A DNA stretch of 64,000 nt, taken from the IMG/VR virus record IMGVR_UViG_3300032050_000048, positions 8,476 to 72,475 of that record. One strand, 5' to 3'. Source of the DNA: a virus (Duplodnaviria > Heunggongvirae > Uroviricota > Caudoviricetes). Made by a program: the position numbers and the translations under genes. Positions 3,274 to 43,832 of this stretch are shown here, piece after piece. The notes beneath the pieces were generated by a model that was not told where the DNA came from, ran no database searches, and worked only from the letters and a program-made list of their open reading frames with translations. Position 1 is the first letter of the stretch, and each line of letters begins with the position of its first letter.

Positions 3274-3816
3274 ATGGGAAAAAAAATTATAATTTCTGAA
3301 AGTCAGCTAGAAAGACTAGCAAAATTAATTGCCGAAGCGGTATCTGGGTATGACGACATTGATACAATGATTATGCATGGAGGACATTCAATGATACTAC
3401 TTCACGAAACTGGAAAGGACTTACTTAAAGTTTTACAAGGAATGCGTATTATGTTAAATGATGGTGACATTTCTAGTGTTGATTTAAAAGAAAATATAAC
3501 CGCAGCAAACGATCTTATTGGTGAAATAGTTAAAATTATGGAGATTGTCTTAAATGACTTTTCTGAAAAACTAACAATAGAAAAAGGTGAAATTTTAATT
3601 GATAAATTAAAATCTTTTACAAACAGAACAAGACCGCTTTTACGATTTGGGGATGAAGACTTAAATAAAAAACAAGTTATAAATAAAGTAACCAAGTTAG
3701 TTAATGATTTATTTGACGATTTTCTTAGTTATTATCAAGAGTTATTAAAAACACATACAACTTTTAAAAATAGAATTGATAAATTTAGACCACAGGCTAG
3801 ACCGGAAGACAATTAA
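3274..3816 (+). CDS. Hypothetical protein with N-terminal leader (MGKKIIISESQLERLAKLIAEAV)
   Basis: Leader family member. Confidence 0.5.
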   Translation: MGKKIIISESQLERLAKLIAEAVSGYDDIDTMIMHGGHSMILLHETGKDLLKVLQGMRIMLNDGDISSVDLKENITAANDLIGEIVKIMEIVLNDFSEKLTIEKGEILIDKLKSFTNRTRPLLRFGDEDLNKKQVINKVTKLVNDLFDDFLSYYQELLKTHTTFKNRIDKFRPQARPEDN

Positions 3817-3822
3817 TTTTTT

Positions 3823-4380
3823 ATGAAAGTTATATTATCTGAATCACAAATAAATAGAACACAAAAAATGATAATAAGTTCAGTTAATCAAATTGGGGTT
3901 ATTAAGACTATGAAAAAATTTAATCTAAACTTAACTGGAATTAATAAAATTCTAAAAGATGTTGATTTAGAGGTTTTTGATTTAGATGTAGATAAAATTA
4001 GTGATATTATTATTCTTTTAATTCGTTATAAATTAACTGAAGTTAATTTTATGTTTGATAACGTTGAAATTGTTTTTGGTAGTGATAGAAATTATTACGT
4101 AACTATTGAGATAAACGTTTTTACTGACAAAGAAATGATTTCGTATTATGGTTATGCAACACCTTTTCTTGAAGGAGATGAAATGTTACCAATTGAAATT
4201 AGCGATAAATACGTACATAATAATAAAACAGAAGATGTTAAAAACTATAATATAGATTTTAAAAGTTATATTGATACACCAATGAATTTTAAAACATTCC
4301 AGGACCTTACAACTTGGGTTAAAGAAACATATCCTCAAATAATATATGAAGAAACAAAGAACTTAACTAAAAATATGTAA
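3823..4380 (+). CDS. Hypothetical protein with N-terminal leader (MKVILSESQINRTQKMI)
   Basis: Leader family member. Confidence 0.5.
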   Translation: MKVILSESQINRTQKMIISSVNQIGVIKTMKKFNLNLTGINKILKDVDLEVFDLDVDKISDIIILLIRYKLTEVNFMFDNVEIVFGSDRNYYVTIEINVFTDKEMISYYGYATPFLEGDEMLPIEISDKYVHNNKTEDVKNYNIDFKSYIDTPMNFKTFQDLTTWVKETYPQIIYEETKNLTKNM

Positions 4381-26895: not shown

Positions 26896-27361
26896 TTAAA
26901 AAAACATTTGTCAATTAAAAAAAATAACCTATATTTGTAAAAGAAAATTAAACTTTTTGTAAAACACATATATTTATAACGAAATGAAAACAACACAGAT
27001 AAATATGAACTTTAATAACCCGTGTCAGAGCTGGGTCAAGTCGTATATTACGCTTCATAAATTTCCGTGTCTTTCATTTAATAGTACAATGTAACGTATC
27101 ATCAAATATAAAAGTGAAAGACCCGGATCCAAAAGACCCGGGTTTTTTGTTTTAAATTGGTCTCTTAGTTTAACTGGAAAAATACGACTCTTGTAAAGTT
27201 GAGTTGTCGGGTCAGTTCCGACAGGGACCTCAAAAAAGAAAATGTTCTTTGACATATCGGCCTTAAAAGGAGAGGTAATCACAGCGGCCTGTGATCCCGT
27301 CTTGAAAACGGTGAGTACCGAAAGGTATGGGGGTCGGCACCTCATCTCTCCTCTTTTATAA

Positions 27362-27435
27362 TGTCCTGTAGACGAATTGGCAGAGTCACCTCACTTTGAA
27401 CGAGGAGTATGGAGGTTCAACCCCTTCCGGGACAA
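27362..27435 (+). tRNA. tRNA-Gln (anticodon TTG)
   Basis: Cloverleaf read by hand. Acceptor tgtcctg/cgggaca (one G-U). Anticodon loop ctTTGaa. T arm ggagg-ttcaacc-ccttc. Confidence 0.65.
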
Positions 27436-27448
27436 CAATAATAAACAT

Positions 27449-27522
27449 AGGGTAGTTGGCTAATTGGCTAAGCCGCCTCGTTTGGGACGAGGAAGATGCA
27501 GGTTCAAGTCCTGTCTACCCTA
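27449..27522 (+). tRNA. tRNA-Pro (TGG)
   Basis: Acceptor agggtag/ctaccct. D stem ggct/agcc. Anticodon stem cctcg/cgagg, loop ttTGGga. T arm gcagg-ttcaagt-cctgt. Confidence 0.8.
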
Positions 27523-27539
27523 CTAAAAAACTATAAGTT

Positions 27540-27728
27540 ATGATAACAAACGAAGAATGTGAAAAAATTTCTATCAAAGGTAAGTTGAGTGGTTTAAATA
27601 ATTACTATATTAGCCTTGTTAAAATTAGTAAGGACCCATCATATCGTGGGGATTTAAGTGAAGAACTTAAAAGAGTGGAAACAGAAATAAAAATAAACAA
27701 TCAAAAACTAATGTCTTATGAAAAGTGA
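27540..27728 (+). CDS. Small hypothetical protein located between tRNA genes
   Basis: 62-aa ORF. Confidence 0.3.
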   Translation: MITNEECEKISIKGKLSGLNNYYISLVKISKDPSYRGDLSEELKRVETEIKINNQKLMSYEK

Positions 27729-27745
27729 CAAGTATGACAAACGAA

Positions 27746-27818
27746 ACCCCTCGTAGCTTAATCGGGAAAGCACCATACTTTTAATATGGGGAGAATCGGA
27801 TCGTAACCGGTCGGGGGG
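27746..27818 (+). tRNA. tRNA-Lys (TTT)
   Basis: Acceptor cccctcg/cgggggg (U-G). Anticodon stem ccata/tatgg, loop ctTTTaa. Unusual T loop atcgtaa. Confidence 0.7.
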
Positions 27819-27828
27819 ACAAAAAACA

Positions 27829-27902
27829 CACACTCTTAGCTCAGTTGGTAGTAGCGGTTGTTTTACATACAACAGGTCATAGGTTCAAGTCCTATAGGGT
27901 GT
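27829..27902 (+). tRNA. tRNA-Val (TAC)
   Basis: Acceptor acactct/agggtgt. Anticodon stem gttgt/acaac, loop ttTACat. T arm atagg-ttcaagt-cctat. Confidence 0.75.
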
Positions 27903-28036
27903 ACAATAGGTTGATTAGGGAAGTACATAACGTTAACGTGTCAGTAGTTCGTAGTTATGTGGGAGTTTTAACTGTCATAGTAAAGCTAATCGTAAAATCA
28001 GATGTCCACAGAACCATCTTCTGATTTCCTAAACTT

Positions 28037-28117
28037 GGGAGAGTTGAGCAATTGGTTGGCTCAGCAGACTGTAAATCTGTCGCGAAAGCCTTGGGGGTTC
28101 AAGTCCCTCCTCTCCCA
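28037..28117 (+). tRNA. tRNA-Tyr (GTA), bacterial type II with long variable arm
   Basis: Acceptor gggagag/ctctccc. D arm gagc-aattggttg-gctc. Anticodon loop ctGTAaa. 13-nt variable arm. Confidence 0.8.
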
Positions 28118-28126
28118 CAACAAAAT

Positions 28127-28199
28127 GGACAAGTAGCTCAATTGGTAGAGCAATCGGCTGTTAACCGATAGGTTGTAGGATCGTACCCTTCCTTGTCCG
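28127..28199 (+). tRNA. tRNA-Asn (GTT)
   Basis: Acceptor ggacaag/cttgtcc. D arm gctc-aattggta-gagc. Anticodon stem atcgg/ccgat, loop ctGTTaa. Confidence 0.8.
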
Positions 28200-28205
28200 C
28201 AATAA

Positions 28206-28278
28206 GTTCACGTAGCTCAATTGGTAGAGTGCCGATCTGATATGTCGGAGGTAATGGGATCGTAACCCGTCGTGAACA
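28206..28278 (+). tRNA. tRNA-Ile (GAT)
   Basis: Acceptor gttcacg/cgtgaac. Anticodon stem ccgat/gtcgg, loop ctGATat. T arm atggg-atcgtaa-cccgt. Confidence 0.75.
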
Positions 28279-28435
28279 CAAAAAGAGGAATAACTTGCGT
28301 AGGTGCCTCAAGGAACTGCAGTCCTACTACGCTCTATGGAAAGTAATCCCTGAAGGCGACGGGGCATGCCTGCTAAGCATTGCGATCGGTGAGAATCCGA
28401 TTGTGGATCGTTACCACTGCTTTCCTCAACATATG

Positions 28436-28508
28436 GTGTATGTAGCTCAATCGGTAGAGCGTTGGTTTGTGGAACCAAAGGTAATGGGATCGTAACCCAT
28501 CATACACA
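28436..28508 (+). tRNA. tRNA-His (GTG)
   Basis: Acceptor gtgtatg/catacac, with an extra G immediately 5' that could be the G-1. Anticodon stem ttggt/accaa, loop ttGTGga. Confidence 0.8.
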
Positions 28509-28703
28509 CAAATAGTTCACAACGGACAAGGCTTAGGCAAGTGAGTTGAGAATGAGTCGTAGGAGATATTACCAAAATGATTAAGTTCAATAAAGGAATC
28601 GTTTGGACTACAAAAAGTTTGATACAAGAGATTGGTGGGTGGCGAGTGGTTGACCAGAACTATTTAAATATCCGATGTCGGTCCCGAGCTAGGTCGGGCA
28701 TTT

Positions 28704-28774
28704 GCGTGGTACAGACAAGGTGTCGGGTAGGTCTCCAAAACCTCACTGGGTGGGTTCAATTCCTACACCACGCG
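28704..28774 (+). tRNA. tRNA-Trp-like (CCA) with degenerate D arm (possible pseudo-tRNA)
   Basis: Acceptor gcgtggt/accacgc, G73. Anticodon arm aggt-ctCCAaa-acct as in E. coli tRNA-Trp. T arm gtggg-ttcaatt-cctac. The D region does not fold canonically. Confidence 0.4.
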
Positions 28775-28820
28775 CTAAAAATAATTTTGGTGGTTAAAAA
28801 ACTTTTTGTATCTTTGAGAT

Positions 28821-29318
28821 ATGAAAAACAGACTACCATACGAAGCAACAGGAAAGGCAATCAAAGGGTATAGTGACTCTAAAATTGCAAAAGGTGAAAC
28901 AAACGATTGTGTTGTAAGAGCATTTGCGTCCTCATTTGAGGTTTCATATGACTATGCACACAAGTATGTCGCTGAAGAGTTTAATAGACAACCAAGAAGA
29001 GGGACATTTGGGACTCCATTAAAATTTGTTAAAATGTCCGATAACAGAGTTATGATAAACGGAAAAAAAGTTCATATTGTTGGTGAAAGAAAGAACGACT
29101 ATATGTTAAGATCTTTGGATTACCCCGTTAAGGTTAAAGGTGAAGTGGTTACAAGAAAAATGACTGTTGGTACCTTTGTTAAGAAAAATCCAAAGGGAAC
29201 TTTTTTTGTACTTGTTAAAGGTCACGCTTTTACAATTAAAGATGGTGTTGTTGTTGGAAACTTTGAGGATTCTCAAAAATTGAAAAGACCGATGCGTTGT
29301 GCATTTGAAATTAAATAA
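28821..29318 (+). CDS. Hypothetical protein
   Basis: 165-aa ORF inside the tRNA island. Confidence 0.5.
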   Translation: MKNRLPYEATGKAIKGYSDSKIAKGETNDCVVRAFASSFEVSYDYAHKYVAEEFNRQPRRGTFGTPLKFVKMSDNRVMINGKKVHIVGERKNDYMLRSLDYPVKVKGEVVTRKMTVGTFVKKNPKGTFFVLVKGHAFTIKDGVVVGNFEDSQKLKRPMRCAFEIK

Positions 29319-29320
29319 AA

Positions 29321-29396
29321 GGAACTATGGTGTAAGTGTGGTGTGTCACGTTGGACTGAAAATCCAAAGGTTGGGGTTCAACTCCCTATGGTTCCA
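29321..29396 (+). tRNA. tRNA-Phe (GAA) with an over-long D region
   Basis: Acceptor ggaacta/tggttcc. Anticodon stem ttgga/tccaa, loop ctGAAaa. T arm tgggg-ttcaact-cccta. The D region is 23 nt, GT-rich. Confidence 0.6.
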
Positions 29397-29419
29397 CAAA
29401 CAAATAAATTAAGGAAATT

Positions 29420-29875
29420 ATGAACAGAGTATTCAGAAAAGTAACCGGAGAATCTGTTCCTGACATTGTAAAACATACTGTTGATATATTAAAGGAATGT
29501 CCCTGGGTTGAGGTACACATTGGTACTGACTCTCAGAATCATAGAAGAAGTACTATATATGTTACAGCAATTGCTTATAGATTTGGGAATAGGGGGGTTC
29601 ATTATATCTATCACAAACAAAAGACAAAAAAGATTAAAGATAAATGGACCAGATTATGGAATGAGGCCGATTATTCAATTGAGGTTGCAGAGTGGTTAAC
29701 CACAAAAGTGAATGTAAAGGTGGAAATAGATTTAGATTACAACAGCGACTTAAAACACTTCAGCTCAAAATTAGTCCAACCGGCTGTTGGTTGGGCGACT
29801 TCACTGGGGTACAAGACAAACATTAAACCCCACAACCAAATTGCAACAAGGGCGGCAGACCACCACTGCCGCTAA
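29420..29875 (+). CDS. Hypothetical protein
   Basis: 151-aa ORF. Confidence 0.5.
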   Translation: MNRVFRKVTGESVPDIVKHTVDILKECPWVEVHIGTDSQNHRRSTIYVTAIAYRFGNRGVHYIYHKQKTKKIKDKWTRLWNEADYSIEVAEWLTTKVNVKVEIDLDYNSDLKHFSSKLVQPAVGWATSLGYKTNIKPHNQIATRAADHHCR

Positions 29876-29879
29876 TTAT

Positions 29880-29952
29880 GAGAGGTTGTCCGAGCGGCGT
29901 TAGGTCTGTGGTTGCAACCCACAGTACGGGGGTTCAAGTCCCTCACCTCTCT
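29880..29952 (+). tRNA. tRNA-Cys (GCA) with Ser-like D arm
   Basis: Acceptor gagaggt/acctctc. Anticodon stem tgtgg/ccaca, loop ttGCAac. T arm ggggg-ttcaagt-ccctc. Confidence 0.55.
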
Positions 29953-29961
29953 CAACAAAAT

Positions 29962-30035
29962 GCCCCTATGGCGGAATAGGTATACGCGTCAGATTTAGGA
30001 TCTGAATTTTGCAGGTTCAAGTCCTGCTAGGGGTA
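29962..30035 (+). tRNA. Type-I (short variable arm) tRNA with anticodon TAG (Leu codon CUA/CUG); identity uncertain
   Basis: Acceptor gccccta/taggggt, A73. D arm gcg-gaataggtata-cgc. Perfect anticodon stem tcaga/tctga with loop ttTAGga. 5-nt variable loop. T arm gcagg-ttcaagt-cctgc. Confidence 0.6.
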
Positions 30036-30403
30036 CAAAACTTTAAAAAAATAAACGATTATGAAAACGTATGACCAACATAAGATGAAAAGAACTCAGA
30101 TCAGGGAAGACCAGGTAAAAGCCGGATTCTTTGACGGTAGATTTGTTTCCCGGGTTGAGGAGTCAAAAAATACTTACACACGAAAGATTAAACATAAAAA
30201 ACAATTTTTTGTTTAATATTTACACTTTTTAAAAGTATTATATATTTATAACAAAAATAATAAAACTGCAAATGAAAAATTTACATATCATATCTTTGAG
30301 AGGGTTAGCAGAAGCTGAGGATTCTATCTATGTGAAGATGGTGTGATAAATTAATACATAAAATATTAGAAACCCATCTTCAAAAAAGATGGGTTTTTTG
30401 TTC

Positions 30404-30443
30404 TTTGACATATTGGAAATATAAAAAATTAAATATACCTTTG
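30404..30443 (+). promoter_or_regulatory. Promoter region: GTTCTTTGA motif and Bacteroidetes-type -7 element TAccTTTG, 5 nt upstream of ATG 30448
   Basis: TAccTTTG at 30436-30443 and TTTG/TTGG upstream; preceded by a terminator hairpin cccatcttcaaaaaagatggg at 30371-30399. Confidence 0.45.
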
Positions 30444-30447
30444 TTGT

Positions 30448-30741
30448 ATGGTAAAATTTAGTGATATAAAGTTTAAACCCCATAGCATGGGTGTTGGTCT
30501 TCAGGGTACTATTTTCTTTCCGGGAGGATATGGAATTTCTTGTGTTAGATTTAAATCTCCTTTTGGTGATAGATATATGTCTTATACAAGTAACGAAGAT
30601 GAGTGGGAAGTTGCAATCCTAAAAGGTGATGAAAACAACTGGGAACTTTGTTATGATACAATTTTAACAAATGATGTTTTGGGATACCAAACAAAAGAAG
30701 ATATTGAAAAAATTATGAGATATCTTATAAGATTACATTAA
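30448..30741 (+). CDS. Hypothetical protein
   Basis: 97-aa ORF. Confidence 0.45.
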   Translation: MVKFSDIKFKPHSMGVGLQGTIFFPGGYGISCVRFKSPFGDRYMSYTSNEDEWEVAILKGDENNWELCYDTILTNDVLGYQTKEDIEKIMRYLIRLH

Positions 30742-30745
30742 AAAG

Positions 30746-30777
30746 ATTTGGTAGATTAAAAAATTTGACATATCTTT
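30746..30777 (+). promoter_or_regulatory. Bacteroidetes-type promoter (TTTG, 20-nt spacer, TAtcTTTG)
   Basis: TTTG at 30746-30749, TAtcTTTG at 30770-30777. Followed by a gtaagacaaa leader and a GTTCTTTGA motif at 30844-30852. Confidence 0.5.
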
Positions 30778-30779
30778 GT

Positions 30780-31250
30780 AAGACAAACGATGGGGGTAGG
30801 AAGTTTAGAAATTGGTATCCTACCCCCAGATAAAGGGAAAAAAGTTCTTTGAAAACATTGTGATTTATTACACTAAAGCGAGGGGGAAAACTTTAGGTAG
30901 TATGTGTTGAACTAGCTTGCTCCGACTAGCACGGTCTAATCCGCCGTGAAGCATTTAATAATGGAGTAATGATGCTGATACATATAAATCACAACTTTTT
31001 AAAATATTGTGGTGGTAAGAAAAGGTGAACTCGTTAAGTTCATAGACCTGTTGACAAAAGATGGTGAAACGAGTGTGGTTGTCAACTACTGTATCACAGA
31101 TATAGCAGGCGGGAGGTAGAGGATCTCACCGGTCTCATAAGCCGGTTTAACTTGGTGCGATTCCAAGGCGTTGCTACAACAAAAAGGGTGGATAGGTGGG
31201 AGGGCCTTTCCTAAAAGACGGCACGCTAGGCCCGTGTTCACCCTTAAAAT
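30780..31250 (+). ncRNA. Candidate structured noncoding transcript A (about 470 nt between the promoter and tRNA-Asp; class unknown)
   Basis: No credible ORF. GC-enriched relative to the surrounding DNA. Hairpins such as gggggtagga...tcctaccccc. Ends at tRNA-Asp. Confidence 0.35.
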
Positions 31251-31322
31251 GGTCCATTGGTGTAGTGGCTAACATACATCCCTGTCACGGATGTGCTCCG
31301 GGTTCAATTCCCGGATGGACCG
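31251..31322 (+). tRNA. tRNA-Asp (GTC)
   Basis: Acceptor ggtccat/atggacc. Anticodon stem catcc/ggatg, loop ctGTCac. T arm ccggg-ttcaatt-cccgg. Confidence 0.8.
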
Positions 31323-31351
31323 CTAAACAATTAAAAACTAAACAAAATGAA

Positions 31352-31573
31352 ATGTTAAAGTTTAAACTGGGGTTGTGGGGTGTTGTAGGTACCACAATGA
31401 TTTACATCTACATAATGAATTTATTTTTCAGTTATGTAATCAACCGGGAGGTTGATGAAATCCTACAAATCGGTGCTAGTTTTATAGCTTTATTCTACAC
31501 CGTTTTTCAAATAAAGCTAATAGTAAAAGAAATAACAAATTTATTTAACAAAAAAGAAAAAGAAAATGATTAG
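31352..31573 (+). CDS. Small membrane protein
   Basis: The track ORF 31196..31573 overlaps tRNA-Asp, so an internal in-frame ATG at 31352 was chosen. MLKFKLGLWGVVGTTMIYIYIMNLFF is hydrophobic. Confidence 0.4.
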   Translation: MLKFKLGLWGVVGTTMIYIYIMNLFFSYVINREVDEILQIGASFIALFYTVFQIKLIVKEITNLFNKKEKEND

Positions 31574-32468
31574 TTTGATTGTAACATTAGTGTTTTTGAT
31601 TATCGCAGGGGTGATGATTGTAAAAGGTAAAATTAACGATGAGTCCTCAAGTATTCTAAAAGGAGTTGTTGTTGGTGTTGTGGGTGTATTGATTGGCGTA
31701 TTCCAACCATACTCACTTGAGAGAATTGACGCCGGTCACAAAGGTATTGTGGTTAACTTGTCCGGATCTGAAAGAGGGGTTGCTTCATATCAGTACAAAA
31801 CTGGGTGGGTTGTTTATAACACCTGGTTCACGCAAGTTCTTGAGTTCCCAACCTTTCAACAACATATTGAGTATGATGATCAGGTTGTAATTACAAAGGG
31901 TGGGTTCTCAGCAACTATTAAACCATCGTTTAACTACTCGTTGAAACCGGAAGCAATTGGTGATATGTTTGAAAACCTACGATTGGGTGTTAAAGAAATT
32001 GAACAAGGGTGGCTTAAAAACGCAATTGTTGGGGCGGTTAATGATGAAGCAAATAAATGGGAAGTTGATAGTATTTTTTCTAATCGTCAACAGTTTGAAG
32101 CGGCAATTGTTGTTGAGTGTAATAAACGATTAACAAAGTGGTTTGATGTGTCACAACTTAGAACAAACATTACACCACCGGAGGCGCTCCAGGAATCAAT
32201 TATTGCAAAAACAAAAGCTATCCAACAAGCTGAAGCCTCCGAGCAACAAGCAATTGCTGCAATTGCAGAAGGAAAACGTAAGGTGGCTGTCGCAAGAGCC
32301 GACTCGGCAGAAACAATTATCAACGCAAAAGCGGCATCACTTGCAATTGAGTTGAAACAACAAAAACTAACACCGATGTATATTGAGTATTTGAAGGCAA
32401 ATGCTTGGGATGGTAAACTTCCAACAACAATGGCAGGCAGTTCTGGAACGTTTTTGAATATTAAATAA
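31566..32468 (+). CDS. SPFH/band-7 (prohibitin/stomatin-like) family protein
   Basis: N-terminal TM helix, then GHKGIVVNLSGSERGV...; a coiled-coil AIQQAEASEQQAIAAIAEGKRKVAVARADSAE typical of the SPFH fold. Confidence 0.7.
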   Translation: MISLIVTLVFLIIAGVMIVKGKINDESSSILKGVVVGVVGVLIGVFQPYSLERIDAGHKGIVVNLSGSERGVASYQYKTGWVVYNTWFTQVLEFPTFQQHIEYDDQVVITKGGFSATIKPSFNYSLKPEAIGDMFENLRLGVKEIEQGWLKNAIVGAVNDEANKWEVDSIFSNRQQFEAAIVVECNKRLTKWFDVSQLRTNITPPEALQESIIAKTKAIQQAEASEQQAIAAIAEGKRKVAVARADSAETIINAKAASLAIELKQQKLTPMYIEYLKANAWDGKLPTTMAGSSGTFLNIK

Positions 32469-32473
32469 AAAGA

Positions 32474-32505
32474 TTTGGAGGATTGAAAAATTCTCCTTAT
32501 CTTTG
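32474..32505 (+). promoter_or_regulatory. Bacteroidetes-type promoter (TTTG, 20-nt spacer, TAtcTTTG)
   Basis: TTTG at 32474-32477, TAtcTTTG at 32498-32505. Followed by a gtaaaacaaa leader and GTTCTTTGA at 32526-32534. Confidence 0.5.
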
Positions 32506-32509
32506 TAAA

Positions 32510-32775
32510 ACAAATAAGGAAAGAAGTTCTTTGAAATAATAGATTGGTAAGATAGCAGATAGACCTACGTCAGCAGACTCTCATAGAGAATCAGAAATGA
32601 TGAGTAAAACGGAGCCCCTATCAGACTAACGTGTTGAGGAGGTACTCAAAGTTTTCCGGGAGGTTAACTGGTAATAAACGATGGTTTGGGTAGAACGGAT
32701 GTTAAAGGCGAGGTGTGGGTAGTAAGGATGGGGTAACCCACGAATAAGTAAATCTTAAGGTCTTACCATTTTTTA
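32510..32775 (+). ncRNA. Candidate noncoding RNA B (about 265 nt, promoter to terminator-like hairpin plus T-run)
   Basis: No ORF. Ends with gtaag...cttac followed by ATTTTTT around 32746-32775. Confidence 0.35.
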
Positions 32776-32928
32776 AAAATCTAAATCACGGGTGGCTCCC
32801 TTAATAGTTAAGGCTGACCTTAAGCATCTGACGCATGTCTATACAGGGGGCGAAAGTGATTTAAAATATTGTAATGAACAACGCGACCGCAGGAGTTGTA
32901 CCTTTATGGTTTTGTAATGTGGTTTTAT

Positions 32929-33003
32929 GTTCCGTTCGTCTAGCTGGTTTAGGACACTTCCCTTTCACGGAAGAGATCATGGGTTCAAATCCCATACGGA
33001 ATA
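32929..33003 (+). tRNA. tRNA-Glu (TTC)
   Basis: Acceptor gttccgt/acggaat. D arm gtc-tagctggtttag-gac. Anticodon stem cttcc/ggaag, loop ctTTCac. T arm atggg-ttcaaat-cccat. Confidence 0.8.
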
Positions 33004-33013
33004 CAAAAAATAT

Positions 33014-33087
33014 GGTCCCGTAGCTCAGCTGAATAGAGCAACGCCCTTCTAAGGCGAAGGTCACAGGTTTGAATCCTGTCGGGACTA
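33014..33087 (+). tRNA. tRNA-Arg (TCT)
   Basis: Acceptor ggtcccg/cgggact. D arm gctc-agctgaata-gagc. Anticodon loop ctTCTaa. T arm acagg-tttgaat-cctgt. Confidence 0.8.
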
Positions 33088-33233
33088 CAAAAAATTAAAA
33101 GTTATGAATTATACAATAGAAAAGAAATGTCATGCTTGGATAGGAATATGGTGGCAAGTTAAGGAAGATAAAGAGATAGTCTTTAAGAGCAAACGAAAAA
33201 AAGATTGTGTGTTCTACGTGAACAGTAAAAAAT

Positions 33234-33338
33234 AGTCAGGTGGCGGAATTGGTAGACGCACCTCAACACCCTGGGGTTGAGACATTAAATGAGGGTTAAC
33301 AATGGGTCTCTTATAGGTTCAAATCCTGTCCTGACTAC
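33234..33338 (+). tRNA. Atypical 105-nt type-II tRNA-like gene (Leu-type D arm; anticodon region expanded or unresolved)
   Basis: Acceptor agtcagg/cctgact. D arm gcggaattggtagacgc is identical to E. coli tRNA-Leu. T arm atagg-ttcaaat-cctgt. About 18 nt too long between the D and T arms; no clean 7-nt anticodon loop. Confidence 0.35.
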
Positions 33339-33601
33339 ACGTGGTAGGGTTCATCACCCCCTAGTGTGCCCCACATAATGAGAAACGGAGTGATATCCGT
33401 AGGGGAACGTACATTGTCGTATAGGGAGAACGACTGGGAAAGTAAGTTGTATTAGATACAGTGGAAACGCACATCTCAACAGAGGTGGACTGAAAGTTTG
33501 CCCGACCTGGGTTGAGGACGAAAGAAACTATTTCTAACCTACCTTTTTGGTGGGGACAACCGGAGCACCTGTAAGCTGAATAAATTAGGGTGTTAACAAA
33601 G
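33339..33601 (+). ncRNA. Candidate structured spacer RNA E between the two atypical type-II tRNA-like genes
   Basis: About 260 nt, GC-enriched, no ORF. Confidence 0.25.
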
Positions 33602-33690
33602 GCAAGTGGCGAAATCGGCAGACGCTAAGGTAGATCTAACTAAGATTGTACCGAGACAATGTAAAAGTTGTCGTATAGGTTCAAATCCTT
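33602..33690 (+). tRNA. Atypical type-II tRNA-like gene (Leu/Ser-type D arm gcgaaatcggcagacgc; anticodon unresolved)
   Basis: Acceptor aggcaag/cttgtct (G3-U70). T arm atagg-ttcaaat-ccttt. A hairpin gacaa...ttgtc in the variable region. No canonical anticodon arm found. Confidence 0.3.
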
Positions 33691-33879
33691 TCTTGTCTAC
33701 AAATACAATTAAAAGATGAATATGTTATTGTTTGTATCATTTGTTTTGTTTATACTTTTAATAGGTAGAAAAAAAAGAAAATATTAACTTCAGTACCCAT
33801 ACAGCGGTGAGACGGGCTAAGTAAGATACGATTCCTCGGGGCTGGGAGTAGAATGCTGAAGAAATATTTTCTAAAATAT

Positions 33880-33959
33880 GCTCCGATGGTGAAATTGGTA
33901 TACACGATGCGTTTAAGCCGCATTCCTACGGGGTGAGGGTTCAAATCCCTCTCGGAGTA
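33880..33959 (+). tRNA. tRNA-Leu (TAA), type II
   Basis: Acceptor gctccga/tcggagt. Anticodon stem atgcg/cgcat, loop ttTAAgc. 11-nt variable arm. T arm gaggg-ttcaaat-ccctc. Confidence 0.75.
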
Positions 33960-34062
33960 CTGTTGTGTTATTCCCTTGAGAAAGGAATTACGGTGGGATA
34001 TGGTCTTGATTTGGATTTAACCTAGTATGAATCACAACACAGAGGACTTCTCATCCTCAACC

Positions 34063-34136
34063 GGACCTTTAACTCAGTTGGTCAGAGTGCTTGACTCATA
34101 ATCAAGGAGTCGTAGGTTCAAACCCTACAAGGTCCA
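34063..34136 (+). tRNA. tRNA-Met (CAT); could instead be an fMet or Ile2 (lysidine) type
   Basis: Acceptor ggacctt/aaggtcc. D arm actc-agttggtca-gagt. Anticodon stem cttga/tcaag, loop ctCATaa. T arm gtagg-ttcaaac-cctac. Confidence 0.75.
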
Positions 34137-34151
34137 CACCGCTTAAGATGC

Positions 34152-37418: not shown

Positions 37419-38102
37419 ATGAATTTAGTCTATCCATTAGAAAAAAAAGGAGTTAAAACATCTGGATTTGGGAATAGAAAGCACCCGGTTAAAGGTAGCA
37501 CTATTCACCATAATGGTATTGATATTGGTATTCCAGACGGAACAAGTGTTATATCAGTCGCTAACGGTGAGGTTGTTAGATCAGATATGAAAGACAAAAA
37601 TGGGTATGGAAATTTTATTATTGTAAAACATAATGTTGATGGTGAAACCTTTTTTTCTTGTTATGCACATTTAACAAAAAGACTTGTTGATGTTGGTGAT
37701 AAGGTTAAAAAAGGAGAGAAAATTGCCGAATCCGGTGGAGGTCAGGGTATTTCTGGTGGTGGGGGTATGTCAACAGGACCACATTTACATTTTGAGATAA
37801 GAAAATCAGTTACTGGTGGTTGGGTAAATCCAGAACCATACATTAATGGAGCACCAATCACAAAAGGTTTTGGTGGTAAGGAAAATAAAAAAGATTTGAG
37901 TGATGATGGTTTAGCGGCAACACTAATGAGTATCGCTAATGATTATGTCCTTAAACCAGTTGGGGATTTGTTGGACAAATCAGAAACAATCAAGTTATTC
38001 AAAAAAATGGCTGCCGATGTTGAGAAGGAATACGAAGCATCCGATAAGGGAATGTGGGAACAAAATGAGAGATTAAAAAAAATTATTAAAAAAATTCTCT
38101 AA
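37419..38102 (+). CDS. M23 family peptidase (lysostaphin-like endopeptidase)
   Basis: HNGIDIGIPDGTSV...GNFIIVKHNVDGETFFSCYAHL...GPHLHFEIRK carries the HxxxD and HxH M23 signatures. Confidence 0.8.
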   Translation: MNLVYPLEKKGVKTSGFGNRKHPVKGSTIHHNGIDIGIPDGTSVISVANGEVVRSDMKDKNGYGNFIIVKHNVDGETFFSCYAHLTKRLVDVGDKVKKGEKIAESGGGQGISGGGGMSTGPHLHFEIRKSVTGGWVNPEPYINGAPITKGFGGKENKKDLSDDGLAATLMSIANDYVLKPVGDLLDKSETIKLFKKMAADVEKEYEASDKGMWEQNERLKKIIKKIL

Positions 38103-38193
38103 CTTCTTGTCAAATCAAAATATTTATCATAACTTTGTAATGTATTTAAAACAGATAGTTCTTTAATTTATTAACCCTTAAAACCACATTAAG

Positions 38194-38352
38194 ATGTCAG
38201 AAGATAATTTTAATGAAGTAGAAAATAAGGAACCCCAAATGTTTGGGTATCGTGATTCTGCTGGGAACCTACTTTGGACTCCCAACCAGGAATTTGCGAA
38301 ACTTAGAGCATACCATTTTGGGACTTATGATGTCTACACAGAAAAAAATTAA
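38194..38352 (+). CDS. Small hypothetical protein (52 aa; not in ORF track)
   Basis: MSEDNFNEVENKEPQMFGYRDSAGNLLWTPNQEFAKLRAYHFGTYDVYTEKN. Confidence 0.3.
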   Translation: MSEDNFNEVENKEPQMFGYRDSAGNLLWTPNQEFAKLRAYHFGTYDVYTEKN

Positions 38353-38370
38353 AAAAAAGTTCATAAAGTA

Positions 38371-38402
38371 CTTGACAAACTGAAAAAAGTGTCGTAACTT
38401 TG
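38371..38402 (+). promoter_or_regulatory. Bacteroidetes-type promoter (CTTG, 20-nt spacer, TAacTTTG)
   Basis: TAacTTTG at 38395-38402. Followed by a gtaaaacaaa leader and GTTCTTTGA at 38431-38439. Confidence 0.5.
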
Positions 38403-38404
38403 TA

Positions 38405-39372
38405 AAACAAATTCGGAAACGTCCGAAATCGTTCTTTGAAAAATTAGAATATCCATTCAGAATGTTTGATGATGAAATCCTTGCGGTTGATTCTGAGTAA
38501 CAAACTGATAAAGATATTTGGCCGTATATAGTCAATAAATAAACTGGGAAACCAGGATAAAGTGGGTCAGTAGTGTAACTGATCTGCGGTTTGGGTAACC
38601 GAACTTAAGTATACAAGCGGGATACCGTTTAACCTTTAGTACCGAGGGCAACGCTGTAGGGAAAGTGGTTAGATGATTGGGCGATGTGGGTCGTCCGGTT
38701 GAGGTGGGAACACCAATAGGAATAACTCGTAGGGATATTGCAAAAAATAAGATTATCCAATTTTATTATTGCGTGTCCCAATATCAGAGGATACTTAAAA
38801 CCGAAAGGTATGATAACAAACAGGTGGTGCTGACATTATCCTTGACCCTTGCCTACCAAGGCATAAGTCACGAAGTAATCTTAAAATATTGAGATGGGGA
38901 CATTTCAGAGAGTAGTTGAGTATCGGCTCGTTCAAAAGATGAGCTGGCTCTGGTGGCGGACCACTACTTTCATAATCCACGACACAAAAACCTAAGAAAA
39001 AATTATGAAATTAATTTAATCAGAAAGGAAAAGTGTCCGTCAGGTTTGGATGAAAGGTGACTACATAGTAATGAGCCGTTCATTGCACACAAGGATCCCA
39101 AGTCTAAGTGTAATTATCCGAAAAACCTTTAGTCCCGCAAGGACGAACTGGGGAGGCATCCTCGGAAAGAGTCAAGTAAGGTGAGAGTAGTCCAAATCTC
39201 AAGGAGTGGTTCCCCTAAGTGACCGTCACTGAGAAATACTTCTCAAAAGGAAGTGGATAGGAGTAGAATAAATAATGACTCTAAAGGTTCTCAATAAAAC
39301 GTGTAATCTCAACGTTCTTTTTAGGTTTAATCTTATAAGACAAAAAAAATTAGTAGGGACAGGAAACTGATC
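38405..39372 (+). ncRNA. Candidate large (about 0.95 kb) structured noncoding RNA, promoter to terminator (GOLLD/ROOL-like?)
   Basis: No ORF over 71 aa, and the reading frames are broken. GC-enriched. Ends with the aggga...tccct hairpin plus TTTTTTT at 39345-39372. Sits beside the tmRNA and the tRNA island. Confidence 0.35.
39345..39372 (+). terminator. Rho-independent terminator of the large candidate ncRNA
   Basis: Hairpin aggga-caggaaactga-tccct followed by TTTTTTT. Confidence 0.55.
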
Positions 39373-39439
39373 CCTTTTTTTGTTTACACAAAAATATAGA
39401 AATCGTACAGCAATAATATATAATTTTAAGACATAAAAA

Positions 39440-39467
39440 AACCCCATCGTATGATGAGGTTATTAAT
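39440..39467 (-). terminator. Rho-independent terminator of tmRNA (minus strand)
   Basis: Minus-strand hairpin cctcatc-atac-gatgggg followed by TTTTTTT, directly after the CCA end. Confidence 0.65.
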
Positions 39468-39858
39468 TGGTGGAGATGCGGGGCTCCGACTCCCCGGTCC
39501 AGCTCGTCTTGTTTAAAAGACCACTACATGCTTAGGTTGGTATTTTCTAATACCCCAAAATAGTTGATTTGTTCTTTTCCATCGTAAATCAACAACCAAT
39601 GGTTTCTAATCCGGATTTAGAGAGCCGACCAGGTTGCTCTATAAAACTACGACTTCTGTTGCTAGGCTATATGTCTGCCGGCCCCCGGTTTTTGTTGCGA
39701 TTACGCTACAGCAACCTCAGAAGTGCGGATTAACCCAACAGCTTCCATTTTGTTTAGCACATTGCCATTTAAAAAGTGAATCAGTTTTTAACGAGATTAA
39801 TTCAGTCCCGACATGCTCCTTTTATTCAACCAACGCCTGTCAAATCCAATACATCCCC
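39468..39858 (-). ncRNA. ssrA: tmRNA (transfer-messenger RNA, SsrA), one-piece, CCA-encoded
   Basis: Minus-strand 5' end GGGGATGTATTGGATTTGACAGG matches the E. coli tmRNA 5' end GGGGCUGAUUCUGGAUUCGACGGG. The 3' end CTAAGCATGTAGT...GGACCGGGGAGTCGGAGCCCCGCATCTCCACCA matches the conserved 3' end. Acceptor ggggatg/catctcc has G3-U70. Internal tag frame ...TSEVAVA-TAA. Confidence 0.85.
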
Positions 39859-39924
39859 GTATATTGTAAATGACTATTATCAAAGAACTATATATAAATA
39901 CAAATATAAACATATTTATACTAT

Positions 39925-40959
39925 ATGCCAACAAATACATACGAATTTTTAAAACAAATTGCAAAAGGTGAGGACTCAGGGTATAATAGATGGAATTACC
40001 CGGATGACTTAATCCACGATATTCGTATTAACGAAAAAAACCCATTGGCATCACAAATTACTTTAGATTTTGATAAGGACAGTGACTTCCTAGAGATATT
40101 AGGTGTTGATGAAAATGACGCCTGGACATATAACTATATAATGTATGGCGACTCTAGTGACTGGGATTGGTATACCTATAGAGATGAATGGAAAGAAGGA
40201 TACATTTTAGATGGTTTTAACAATGAGAATAAAGAAAAATTTGAAAAAATTGTAAGACTATCACTTTCACCAAAAACTTCAGTAAGAAGTGATATTTTAA
40301 ATGGAATACTTGGGATTTATGAAGATCAAGTAGAAAATATCATTTCGGCATATGCAAATGAAAATGAAAGATGTCAAATTGATGGGGCTAAAGAAATTAT
40401 AAGACGAGAAACAGAAAAACCATTTGATAGATTTGGAATTATTGAAGTATGGCACGGATCCAGATTTAAAACAACAGTTGGTATTTTACTTAATTGGTAT
40501 AGAATGTTAAAAATGGAAGATGATGATATTAAACATCTTCTTAAATCTTTATTTGAAAAATATAACCCAAAAAGTGATATTGGTGGTTGGGAAGAGATTA
40601 GATATAACTCATTTTGTGATGACTATGATTCAGAAGGAGTCCAAATGGAGATTAGTCACGAACTTGACAAAATAATTGAGATAATTGAAGAAGAAGGGGT
40701 TCACGACGAGTTTCAAAAAATATATGATGTTGTTGTAAAACTTGGAGGGTTCAATAAAATGCTTGATTTAAAAGAAAAGGAAATATCTGTTATATTTGAT
40801 AGTATTGATCCACATACCGGACAACTAGTTTTTAAATTATATAAAAAAGGTGGTAAGATGGAAAAAAGAAGTGTTGACAATCTTGAGGATCTTTATTTAA
40901 ATTTATACCACCCAGAATTATTTGAAAGTGTTAAAGATATTTTAAATAGAATTTTGTAG
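39925..40959 (+). CDS. Hypothetical protein
   Basis: 344-aa ORF. Confidence 0.5.
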   Translation: MPTNTYEFLKQIAKGEDSGYNRWNYPDDLIHDIRINEKNPLASQITLDFDKDSDFLEILGVDENDAWTYNYIMYGDSSDWDWYTYRDEWKEGYILDGFNNENKEKFEKIVRLSLSPKTSVRSDILNGILGIYEDQVENIISAYANENERCQIDGAKEIIRRETEKPFDRFGIIEVWHGSRFKTTVGILLNWYRMLKMEDDDIKHLLKSLFEKYNPKSDIGGWEEIRYNSFCDDYDSEGVQMEISHELDKIIEIIEEEGVHDEFQKIYDVVVKLGGFNKMLDLKEKEISVIFDSIDPHTGQLVFKLYKKGGKMEKRSVDNLEDLYLNLYHPELFESVKDILNRIL

Positions 40960-40987: not shown

Positions 40988-41773
40988 ATGGAAAGAAATT
41001 TTGAATTACTAAAAAAGGTCCTTTCGGTTCCGACTAAGACCTACCAGGAAGATTTAATGATTGAGTTTATTGTTGACTGGCTTGAGTCAAAGAATATTCC
41101 ATTTTATCTGGACCAATACTATAATGTATATGCTACAAAACAAACAGATACCAATATTGAGTATTTTCCTTGTGTTGTAGCCCACACAGACACTGTTCAC
41201 AATATTGATACAATAAATGTCGTTGAGGAGATGCTTCCAAACGCACAGAAAGAGATAAAACTAGCACTTAAAGCTTATAACGATAAAGGAGAACCAACCG
41301 GTATTGGTGGTGATGATAAATGTGGCGTATTTGCCTGTCTTGAACTTCTTGAGGAAATGCCAAACCTAAAAGCTGCGTTCTTTGTTGCTGAAGAAACTGG
41401 ATGTAAAGGGTCATTTAACTCAGATTCGGCTTTCTTTGAAAACGTGGGTTATGTTATTCAGTTTGATGCACCAGAAAATAATATGATTTCTGAGTTTCTT
41501 ATGAGTGCGCCAATGTTTACCCGGGATAGTGATTTCTTTAAGGTTGGTGGAAGGTTGATTACAGAACATTTCCCAAAGGACACAAAATACCATAGACATC
41601 CATATACGGATATTTATCCTTTAAATCAAAGATATAAGATATCTTGTTTTAATATCTCAATTGGTTATTACAACTACCACACAAGAAATGAGTACGTTGT
41701 TATTGATGATACATACAACGGAATAAAGGTAGGTAAGTTAATGATTGAGGAACTTGGTTATACCAAACATTAA
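40988..41773 (+). CDS. MH-clan zinc peptidase (M20/M28/M42-like aminopeptidase/hydrolase)
   Basis: VAHTDTVH, GGDDKCGVFACLELLEE and AEETGCKGS give the His/Asp metal ligands, the GxDDKxG motif and the Glu-Glu pair. Confidence 0.6.
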   Translation: MERNFELLKKVLSVPTKTYQEDLMIEFIVDWLESKNIPFYLDQYYNVYATKQTDTNIEYFPCVVAHTDTVHNIDTINVVEEMLPNAQKEIKLALKAYNDKGEPTGIGGDDKCGVFACLELLEEMPNLKAAFFVAEETGCKGSFNSDSAFFENVGYVIQFDAPENNMISEFLMSAPMFTRDSDFFKVGGRLITEHFPKDTKYHRHPYTDIYPLNQRYKISCFNISIGYYNYHTRNEYVVIDDTYNGIKVGKLMIEELGYTKH

Positions 41774-41776
41774 AAA

Positions 41777-41799
41777 AGGAGGGTTTTTAACCCTCCTTT
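41777..41799. terminator. Bidirectional terminator between convergent peptidase and Clp ATPase genes
   Basis: Hairpin aaggagggtttttaaccctcctt. Confidence 0.6.
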
Positions 41800-43832
41800 T
41801 TCTTTCTACCCCTTTTAGGTTTATTCTCAATAAGAACATCAATCTTAATTTCCTTATCTACAACTGTCAATTTATAATCAACATCTTCTAGAACTTCATT
41901 TAGTAATATTTTCTCAGAGATAAGGTCTTCAATTTTATCCTGGATTGCCCTTTTAATTGGTCTTGCACCAAATTGTTCATCAAACCCAACCTCAGATATC
42001 AATTCAACAACTGACTCATCGTATGTAATTTTATATTTCATTGACTCAATTCTGTTAACTAACTTCTCAATTTCAATTTTAACAATCCGGTCAACGTGCT
42101 CTTTTTTAAGCGAGTTAAAGACAATAACGTCATCAATTCTATTTAGGAATTCTGGAGCGAAGAACTTACTTAATTCTTTTTTGAGGATATCTCTTTTTTC
42201 TTCTTCTCTTACTGCTTCACTACTATTTGATTTAAACCCAACTCCAGTTCCAAAATCCTGTAATTTTCTAACACCAATATTTGATGTCATAATAATTAAA
42301 CAATTTTTGAAGTTAATTTTTCTTCCAAGTCCGTCGGTCATATGCCCGTCATCAAGCATTTGAAGAAGTGTTGAGAAGATATCTTTATTTGCCTTTTCAA
42401 TCTCATCAAATAAGATAACAGAGTATGGTTTATTTTTAACCTGTTCTGTAAGCTGTCCACCCTCTTCGTGACCAACATATCCTGGAGGAGAACCGATAAG
42501 CCTTGATATAGTATGTTTTTCCTGATATTCAGACATATCAACACGAATCAAACTATCTTCACTACCAAAAATTTCTTTTGCTAGTTTCTTTGCAAGATAT
42601 GTTTTACCAACACCGGTTGACCCAAGGAAGATAAATGAACCAATTGGTCTATTTGGGTCCTTAATTCCAATTCTATTTCTTCTAATGGATTTTGATATTT
42701 TTGTTACCGCTTCAGCCTGACCAATTACATAGCTATTTAGTGCGTTCTCTAAATTAACAAGAGAGTTTTTCTCGTCAACATTAATTTTGCTTACCGGGAT
42801 TTTAGTCATTTTAGAAACAACCTCATAAATTAAATCTTCCGGAATTACTCTTTTACTATTTCTAAGTTCTTCCTCAAATTTTAATCTTTCGGCATCAAGT
42901 GATGACATTACTGATTTTTCCCGGTCCCTTAACTCAGCAGCCATTTCGTATTTCTGTTTTTTTATAACGTCAGACTTCTCCTTTTTAATTTCAAGAAGTT
43001 CTTGTTTTAGATTTTCAATACTTTCAGGAAGTTTAATATCAATTTGCATTCTTGACCCAACCTCATCAATAATATCAAAAGCTTTATCCGGAAACTCACG
43101 ATCTGTAATATATCTATCGGCAAGTTCTACACATAAAAGAAGTGATTCGTCTGAATATGTTACCTTGTGATGTTCTTCATACTTTTCTTTACTATTTTTT
43201 AAAATTTGAAAAGTTTCAGCCTTTGTTGATGGTTCTACAATTACTTTCTGGAATCTTCTCTCAAGAGCTCCATCCTTCTCAAAATGCTTTCTATATTCAT
43301 CAAGGGTTGTAGCACCAATACATTGGATTTCACCCCTAGAAAGGGCCGGTTTAAAGATGTTTGAGGCATCAAGTGAACCAGAACTATTACCAGCACCAAC
43401 CATTGTATGAATCTCATCAATAAAAAGAATAATGTTTGGATTACTTTGAAGTTCCTCAATTATTACTTTCATTCTTTCCTCAAATTGTCCACGATATTTT
43501 GTACCGGCAACAATTGAATTCATCTCAAGGGAAACAATTCTTTTCTCTGAAAGATTTTTAGGACATTCACCACTATGAATCATCATTGCCAACCCTTCTA
43601 CAATTGCTGTTTTACCACAACCTGGTTCACCGATAATAATAGGGTTGTTTTTCTTTCTTCTAGATAAAATTTGTGCAATTCTAATAATTTCATCTTCTCT
43701 ACCTATTACAGGGTCTAATTTACCTTCTTGAGCTAACTTATTTAAGTCTTTACTAAAGTTGTCTAGAACCGGAGTTCCACTATCACTTTTTTTCTTGTTC
43801 TTGTCGTTGTCATCAATGAATTCTATTGCCAT
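41787..43832 (-). CDS. ClpC/ClpA-like class I AAA+ unfoldase (two ATPase domains, UVR-type middle domain, VGF ClpP-docking loop; no Clp_N domain)
   Basis: Walker A motifs [15 protein letters not shown] and [15 protein letters not shown]. Middle domain [21 protein letters not shown] tripeptide loop. N-terminus begins about 50 residues before the first Walker A. Confidence 0.85.

Follow-up and report, generated by a model that had tools for sequence, protein, structure and literature searches.

The RNA gene and its transcription unit

The window, i.e. the whole 64,000-nt stretch of viral DNA that was analysed, almost certainly carries a stand-alone GOLLD RNA gene (Rfam RF02032) at 38372-39381 on the plus strand, in the genome of an uncultured low-G+C phage with Bacteroidota-type promoters. 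A conserved gene for a 52-aa protein (38194-38352, plus strand), recognized from the ORF list, tblastn and an HMM, is a neighbour of the RNA and not part of it. On the other side lies a tmRNA gene (39468-39858, minus strand; Rfam RF00023, 86.7 bits) that is convergent with GOLLD. Genes for a GH19 enzyme, a 203-aa protein and an M23 peptidase are found just upstream of the locus. The GOLLD family was reportedly described in 2009, and its structure was solved by cryo-EM in 2025.

In an Rfam scan of the whole window, RF02032 matches positions 38908-39315 (plus strand) with 319.1 bits, against a gathering score of 150 (E = 1.4e-90). The match spans model positions 1-416 of 416 with few non-standard pairs marked in the Rfam alignment, and apart from tRNAs nothing else in the interval matches strongly. 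When 38100-39930 was scanned permissively (E <= 1), GOLLD, the tmRNA and two weak sub-threshold sRNA matches were all that appeared; in particular, there was no match to ROOL, HEARO, OLE, group I or II introns, or RNase P. ROOL is likewise a large ornate phage or prophage RNA that occurs near tRNAs and forms an RNA-only cage (PMC12286853), and is unrelated to this RNA in sequence and fold. An earlier, sequence-only reading of this DNA had suspected a large ornate phage ncRNA, naming GOLLD first, or else a possible new class, and had proposed the Rfam comparison. Its first suggestion agrees with the RF02032 score and with the collinearity and 5′-half covariation described below. By the RF02032 match, the GOLLD gene is a new member of a known family, and the idea of a new class is without support.

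The promoter of the gene is of the Bacteroidota type (38372-38402, plus strand), with a −33 element TTG(ACA) at 38372-38377 and a −7 element TAACTTTG at 38395-38402. CTTG (38371-38374) is separated from the −7 element by a 20-nt spacer, exactly where it had been placed before (38371-38402), and transcription would start at about 38406-38410. There are 27 full promoter motifs on the two strands of the window vs. 13.2 ± 3.9 in Markov shuffles, i.e. about twofold, and the motif by itself is not statistically decisive and proves little. The promoter is credible because both boxes are kept in nearly all of 63 homologues, in which the A-rich spacer varies.

At the other end, an intrinsic terminator (39356-39381, plus strand) is formed by GGGACAG-GAAA-CUGAUCCC followed by U7 (39375-39381). 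It is hidden from a simple scan by a bulged A in the stem, and was resolved by folding. The sequence-only reading had correctly closed the unit with a stem-loop and T7, and had set them at 39345-39372, about 10 nt to the left of their true position. In 52 of 62 homologues, a hairpin and U-tract lie 30-120 nt past the GOLLD end, with differing stem sequences. Since promoter and terminator are both kept in homologues, they are well supported, and far better so than by the motifs themselves.

The primary transcript predicted from these signals, which is about 970 nt long, is bounded by promoter and terminator and is non-coding. From 5′ to 3′, it comprises the leader (110 nt), the 5′ domain (390 nt), the 3′ domain (408 nt) and a trailer of 65 nt with the terminator at its end. 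G+C is 0.41-0.42 over 38500-39250 vs. 0.27-0.33 in the flanks, in line with the GC enrichment noted previously, and the 974-nt transcript has a minimum free energy of −268.9 kcal/mol (z = −4.5 vs. shuffles).

Relatives were gathered by scanning IMG/VR for an exact pattern, a conserved motif of the 3′ core, which gave 102 stretches; all are IMG/VR viral contigs, and the relatives are from lake metagenomes. In most of the 102 stretches, BLAST shows 75-90% conservation of both halves of the unit along their entire length. At most loci the alignment begins at 38340-38365, just 5′ of the promoter, and ends at 39311-39324, while about 15 loci align only from 38508-38520. Conservation is high over 38360-39319 and falls after 39320, with dips at a hairpin (38460-38499) and at a linker (38980-39019). 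In INPHARED, no match was found for 20 kb of the window or for the downstream 344-aa protein. Among 185,579 species genomes, none matches the 3′ core pattern, and a pattern of the type of env-38, a solved GOLLD RNA, is likewise without a match in the viral contigs scanned. A distant DNA search with the unit gave only matches of 100-140 nt, to the GOLLD 3′ core, in Acinetobacter phages and one megaphage.

A small protein gene upstream of the RNA

The sequence-only reading had seen no credible ORF from 38103 to 39924. This holds inside 38403-39372 and fails at 38194-38352, where the conserved 52-aa gene is located; the right part of this 1.8-kb “ORF-free” stretch is the minus-strand tmRNA gene. 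A motif scan places a promoter-like site for the 52-aa gene, TTG-N20-TAACTTTG, at 38107-38137 (plus strand).

Homologues of the 52-aa protein with 35-65% identity lie just 5′ of GOLLD in many loci (tblastn). An ORF survey and an HMM search covered the 87 loci that include the 5′ end of GOLLD; in 66 of them a member of the family lies immediately before GOLLD in the same orientation, and the family occurs at no other place in the 87. A profile search of a large protein collection yielded 220 protein clusters in the family, 40-67 aa long and all unnamed. The reverse test started from the protein and drew on contigs of 8 of the 220 clusters: all 46 loci in which the sequence continues for 180 nt or more past the ORF have the GOLLD 5′ domain on the same strand, beginning 135-310 nt downstream. 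Rfam was run on 13 of the loci; in the 12 with a complete RNA it confirms GOLLD with 311-328 bits, and the 13th (L113) ends within the RNA. The flanking genes differ among groups of these loci, so the protein-GOLLD pair persists through rearrangements. The contexts include a holin, 203-aa protein, Pyr_excise and M23 peptidase; an N6_N4 methyltransferase, 499-aa protein and DUF192; a methyltransferase with a 566- or 605-aa protein; and others.

The 52-aa protein is acidic, with a net charge of about −4, and AF2 predicts a small unit with the order strand-strand-helix-strand (pLDDT 77). Neither Pfam nor PHROGs has a match for it, and no informative fold relative was found for the predicted structure. 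The ORF is absent from 21 of the 87 clade loci, many of which have tRNA-Met there instead. The linkage could be functional or merely inherited within a subclade. We tentatively raise the possibility that the 43-67-aa upstream protein is a dedicated partner of this GOLLD lineage, serving as cargo, as an assembly or opening factor, or as a regulator. No protein partner of GOLLD is proposed in the literature searched, which leaves aside the 2009 discovery and 2020 Mycobacterium papers.

The proximity of the two genes may also be read in other ways. The mRNA of the 52-aa protein might run on into GOLLD as its long structured 3′ part, the two forming one unit in which the RNA stabilizes or localizes the mRNA or controls translation of the ORF. 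The ORF stop at 38352 is only 19 nt before the −33 box with no terminator seen between them, and both surveys, in which the ORF precedes GOLLD (66/87) and GOLLD follows the ORF (46/46), would fit such an arrangement. We consider it improbable, however, as a promoter for GOLLD itself is kept in nearly all homologues, among them loci without the ORF and loci in which tRNA-Met comes directly before GOLLD. Furthermore, the ORF is missing from the 21 clade loci mentioned above and from Acinetobacter phage Herod, where GOLLD lies inside a tRNA array, and the solved GOLLD RNAs assemble without any mRNA part (PMC12286853).

It is more improbable still that the ORF and GOLLD form a mobile or selfish cassette that persists by its own spread. 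The block does sit between different neighbour genes, but module shuffling is common in phage genomes anyway, conservation ends at the promoter and terminator, and no integrase, endonuclease or repeat boundary was seen.

Domains, assembly motifs and leader of the RNA

We now return to the stand-alone GOLLD gene and its structure. The 3′ domain (P14-P27) is the stretch matched by RF02032. Because this model describes only the conserved 3′ half of GOLLD, the 5′ half needed a separate test and was examined on its own. env-38 is collinear with window positions 38519-39315, at 62% identity over the whole RNA; the query was an 815-nt copy of the 833-nt RNA from the supplement of Kretsch et al. 2025 (PMC12286853), the text of which is imperfect. 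The collinear alignment thus sets the canonical GOLLD at about 38518-39315. Within it, the 5′ domain (38518-38907, plus strand), the equivalent of P1-P13, is collinear with env-38 nt 1-420 and shares with it the strings GGAUAAAGUG, CUGCGGUUU, GGAAUAACUC and GGUGGUGC. Homology of the 5′ domain to P1-P13 is supported by collinearity and covariation over the domain as a whole.

Covariation was assessed in an alignment of 51 distinct sequences of 38403-38915, for which RNAalifold gave a consensus of 108 pairs. Four spurious pairs between the leader and 38909-38912 were dropped, leaving 104 pairs in 20 helices. The dropped pairing, of leader CUUU with AGAG at 38909-38912, is an artefact: the true partner of AGAG in the Rfam alignment is 38968-38971, outside the alignment used here. 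For the 104 pairs, 97.3% of the cells form a standard pair vs. 35-42% with the partners slid by 1-3 columns, and 65 pairs have changed on both sides vs. 18-25 when slid. None of 500 shuffles reaches the observed pairing and covariation values. Conservation and covariation in related phages, which the sequence-only reading had singled out as informative, are both present, with compensatory change in 65 of the 104 pairs.

It is very unlikely that only the 3′ half is GOLLD and that the 5′ 500 nt are a separate, unrelated RNA or a fused new class. Such a reading takes its cue from the restriction of the RF02032 match to 38908-39315 and from the variation of GOLLD 5′ regions between members (PMC12286853, PMC12990946). 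However, the alignment of 38518-38907 with env-38 nt 1-420 holds at the level of single bases, no homologue shows a break in conservation between the two halves, and the 110-nt leader alone is without a counterpart in the env-38 construct. That the interval hides a protein-coding gene, with conservation due to the protein, can practically be dismissed: homologues do have stop-free stretches of 56-159 aa and in the window the interval is overlapped by ORFs with 71, 73 and 88 aa, but the six longest ORFs in 38403-39372 are intact in only 3-31 of 63 homologues, substitutions in the homologue alignment have no 3-base periodicity (codon-position variability is flat at 0.139, 0.156 and 0.152), changes are compensatory across helices, and the RF02032 match covers the 3′ half completely.

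The 3′ domain of GOLLD contains several elements with known roles in env-38. An A-rich variable linker (38972-39030, plus strand) is unpaired in the Rfam alignment, and its conservation drops to 0.36-0.59 at 38980-39019. Some mycobacterial GOLLD copies carry a tRNA in the linker (PMC12990946), whereas none is embedded in 38972-39030. The Rfam alignment pairs 39039-39052 (J13/15 side) with 39189-39200 (L20 side), both on the plus strand, in a 10-bp pseudoknot or kissing interaction. The two halves covary in more than 10 combinations, e.g. AGGUUUGGA/UCCAAAUCU, AGGUAAUAG/CUAUUAUCU and AGUUGUAGG/GCUACAACU. A hairpin with a GGCA loop (39148-39165, plus strand) is tentatively assigned to L21a of env-38 by its position in the Rfam alignment; the loop is kept in nearly all of 64 sequences, and its closing A-U covaries with U-A. 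P27 covaries around the conserved L27 loop UAAUCUCA.

The cryo-EM structure of env-38 (PDB 9MEE; PMC12990946) is a closed 14-mer with D7 symmetry, in which the 5′ domains are the caps and the 3′ domains the rings (PMC12286853). In that structure, the linker is disordered and points into the cage interior, the L20-J13/15 kiss is the intermolecular bridge B7, and a self-complementary GC or CG dinucleotide in L21a makes a symmetric kiss between the half-shells, bridge B8 (PMC12286853). The RNA described here resembles env-38 in its collinearity over the full length (62%) and in being built of two domains, the 3′ one with a variable A-rich linker; the covarying loop-linker kiss of 10 bp, the L27 loop and the GC loop assigned to L21a are also common to both. 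A GAAA loop at the presumed L11a position (CC-GAAA-GG, 38801-38808), phage origin and the closeness of tRNA genes are further likenesses.

The differences from env-38 are also several. This RNA has a 3-bp CC-GAAA-GG hairpin whereas env-38 has GGGG-AAA-CCCC, and several of its helices are shorter or longer. These differences in helix length matter because such differences change the oligomer number among known members (PMC12990946). Unlike env-38, which is placed just after tRNA-Met, this RNA has a dedicated promoter and terminator, and its clade has the extra 110-nt leader with a near-invariant motif, lake-metagenome relatives and Bacteroidota-type promoters; here, the small protein gene lies directly upstream.

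Among other members, the GOLLD RNA of Acinetobacter phages has the same 3′ domain, matching window positions 39175-39316 at 72-74%, and those of Streptococcus agalactiae and of Mycobacterium tRNA arrays also have the 3′ domain in common with this RNA. These other copies are located within tRNA arrays and, as Herod shows, have no small ORF in front of them. The S. agalactiae RNA is without P9, P11a-c and P21b and is a 12-mer (PMC12990946). The subunit number of 10, 12 or 14 depends on the helices present in a member (2026 review, PMC12990946). By analogy with the env-38 and S. agalactiae structures, copies of the RNA would self-assemble, with no protein required, into a closed cage of dihedral symmetry, perhaps with 12-14 subunits, with the 5′ domains as caps and the 3′ domains as rings. 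In such a cage, neighbouring subunits would touch through the 10-bp loop-linker kiss and the self-complementary GC loop, with the A-rich linker facing the interior.

The conserved leader (38408-38517, plus strand; 110 nt) lies outside both the RF02032 model and the env-38 construct, and reaches from the presumed start site to the first base aligned with env-38. Its first hairpin (helix 1, 38412-38427) covaries, with UUCGGA/UCCGAA, UCAGGA/UCCUGA and CUUGGU/ACCAAG, and a variable hairpin region follows at 38460-38499. Between them is a near-invariant 11-nt motif, GUUCUUUGAAA (38431-38441, plus strand), in which GTTCTTT is present in 63 of 64 sequences; about 15 loci with a different leader still keep the motif. 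A covariation scan gave no partner for it among hundreds of trivial matches, and covariation is silent on this point because the motif never varies.

Two further candidates in the leader were set aside. UUUGAA in the leader could pair with UUCAAA in the conserved L14 loop, a match to which we give no weight since a 6-mer match is expected by chance and L14 has a known contact (PMC12990946). A direct repeat, CGTTCTTT, at 38430-38437 and 39313-39320 might have marked processing sites on either side of the GOLLD core; its 3′ copy occurs in just 7 of 64 homologues, and the repeat is most likely due to chance.

Genomic setting and possible role

The window contains 17 tRNA genes at 27159-34137. Within this array, Bacteroidota-type promoter motifs with A-rich spacers occur on the plus strand (26908-32505) at 26908, 28787, 30413, 30748 and 32475, and suggest that the array is transcribed in several units. 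The promoter type would also point to a Bacteroidota host. The nearest tRNA-Met gene in the window is 4.2 kb upstream of GOLLD (34063-34137). In many relatives tRNA-Met abuts GOLLD, either downstream (L023, L068, L039, L067, L099 and L074) or upstream (L056, L028, L101, L076 and L046). In L023, L068 and L039, the terminator comes only after the adjoining tRNA-Met, which suggests that GOLLD and tRNA-Met are co-transcribed there.

The tmRNA gene has a promoter-like site of its own (39931-39901) and a terminator (39461-39440). The tag that it encodes, as read manually off the Rfam alignment, has 21 residues, GNVLNKMEAVGLIRTSEVAVA. The tmRNA of the window escaped ARAGORN, which found homologous tmRNAs with near-identical tags beside GOLLD in L077, L017, L039 and L067. 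The convergent GOLLD-tmRNA pairing is also seen in L077, L017, L103, L104, L107, L110 and L128. Next to the tmRNA gene is a protein-turnover cluster, in which 40988-41773 encodes a peptidase of the M20/M28 type and 41787-43832 (minus strand) a ClpB/ClpA-like AAA+ ATPase of 681 aa that contains two AAA modules. Some relatives (L103-L110, at about 3684-4353) encode a protein with an ATE_C domain (arginyl-tRNA-protein transferase family) between GOLLD and the tmRNA.

Taken together, the tRNAs, the tmRNA, the Clp-like ATPase, the peptidases and the ATE_C protein of the relatives direct attention to translation and protein turnover. In another member, GOLLD expression rises during phage-induced lysis (PMC12286853, PMC12990946). 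Judging from the gene neighbourhood, the cage would be made during lytic growth and act on the translation or protein-quality machinery, and it would hold or shield, for example, tRNA, ribosomes or a small protein.

The GOLLD assignment in itself only enlarges a known family by a single member, which comes from an unsequenced lake phage. Beyond this, the clade displays a complete unit with promoter, leader and terminator, and a small gene welded to the RNA across several genome contexts. If the upstream protein is indeed a partner of GOLLD, it would be the first protein component tied to a GOLLD system, and the leader with its GUUCUUUGAAA motif may be where the RNA is processed or engaged. The co-inherited protein of about 50 residues and the near-invariant 11-nt leader motif are both objects that can be tested in vitro.
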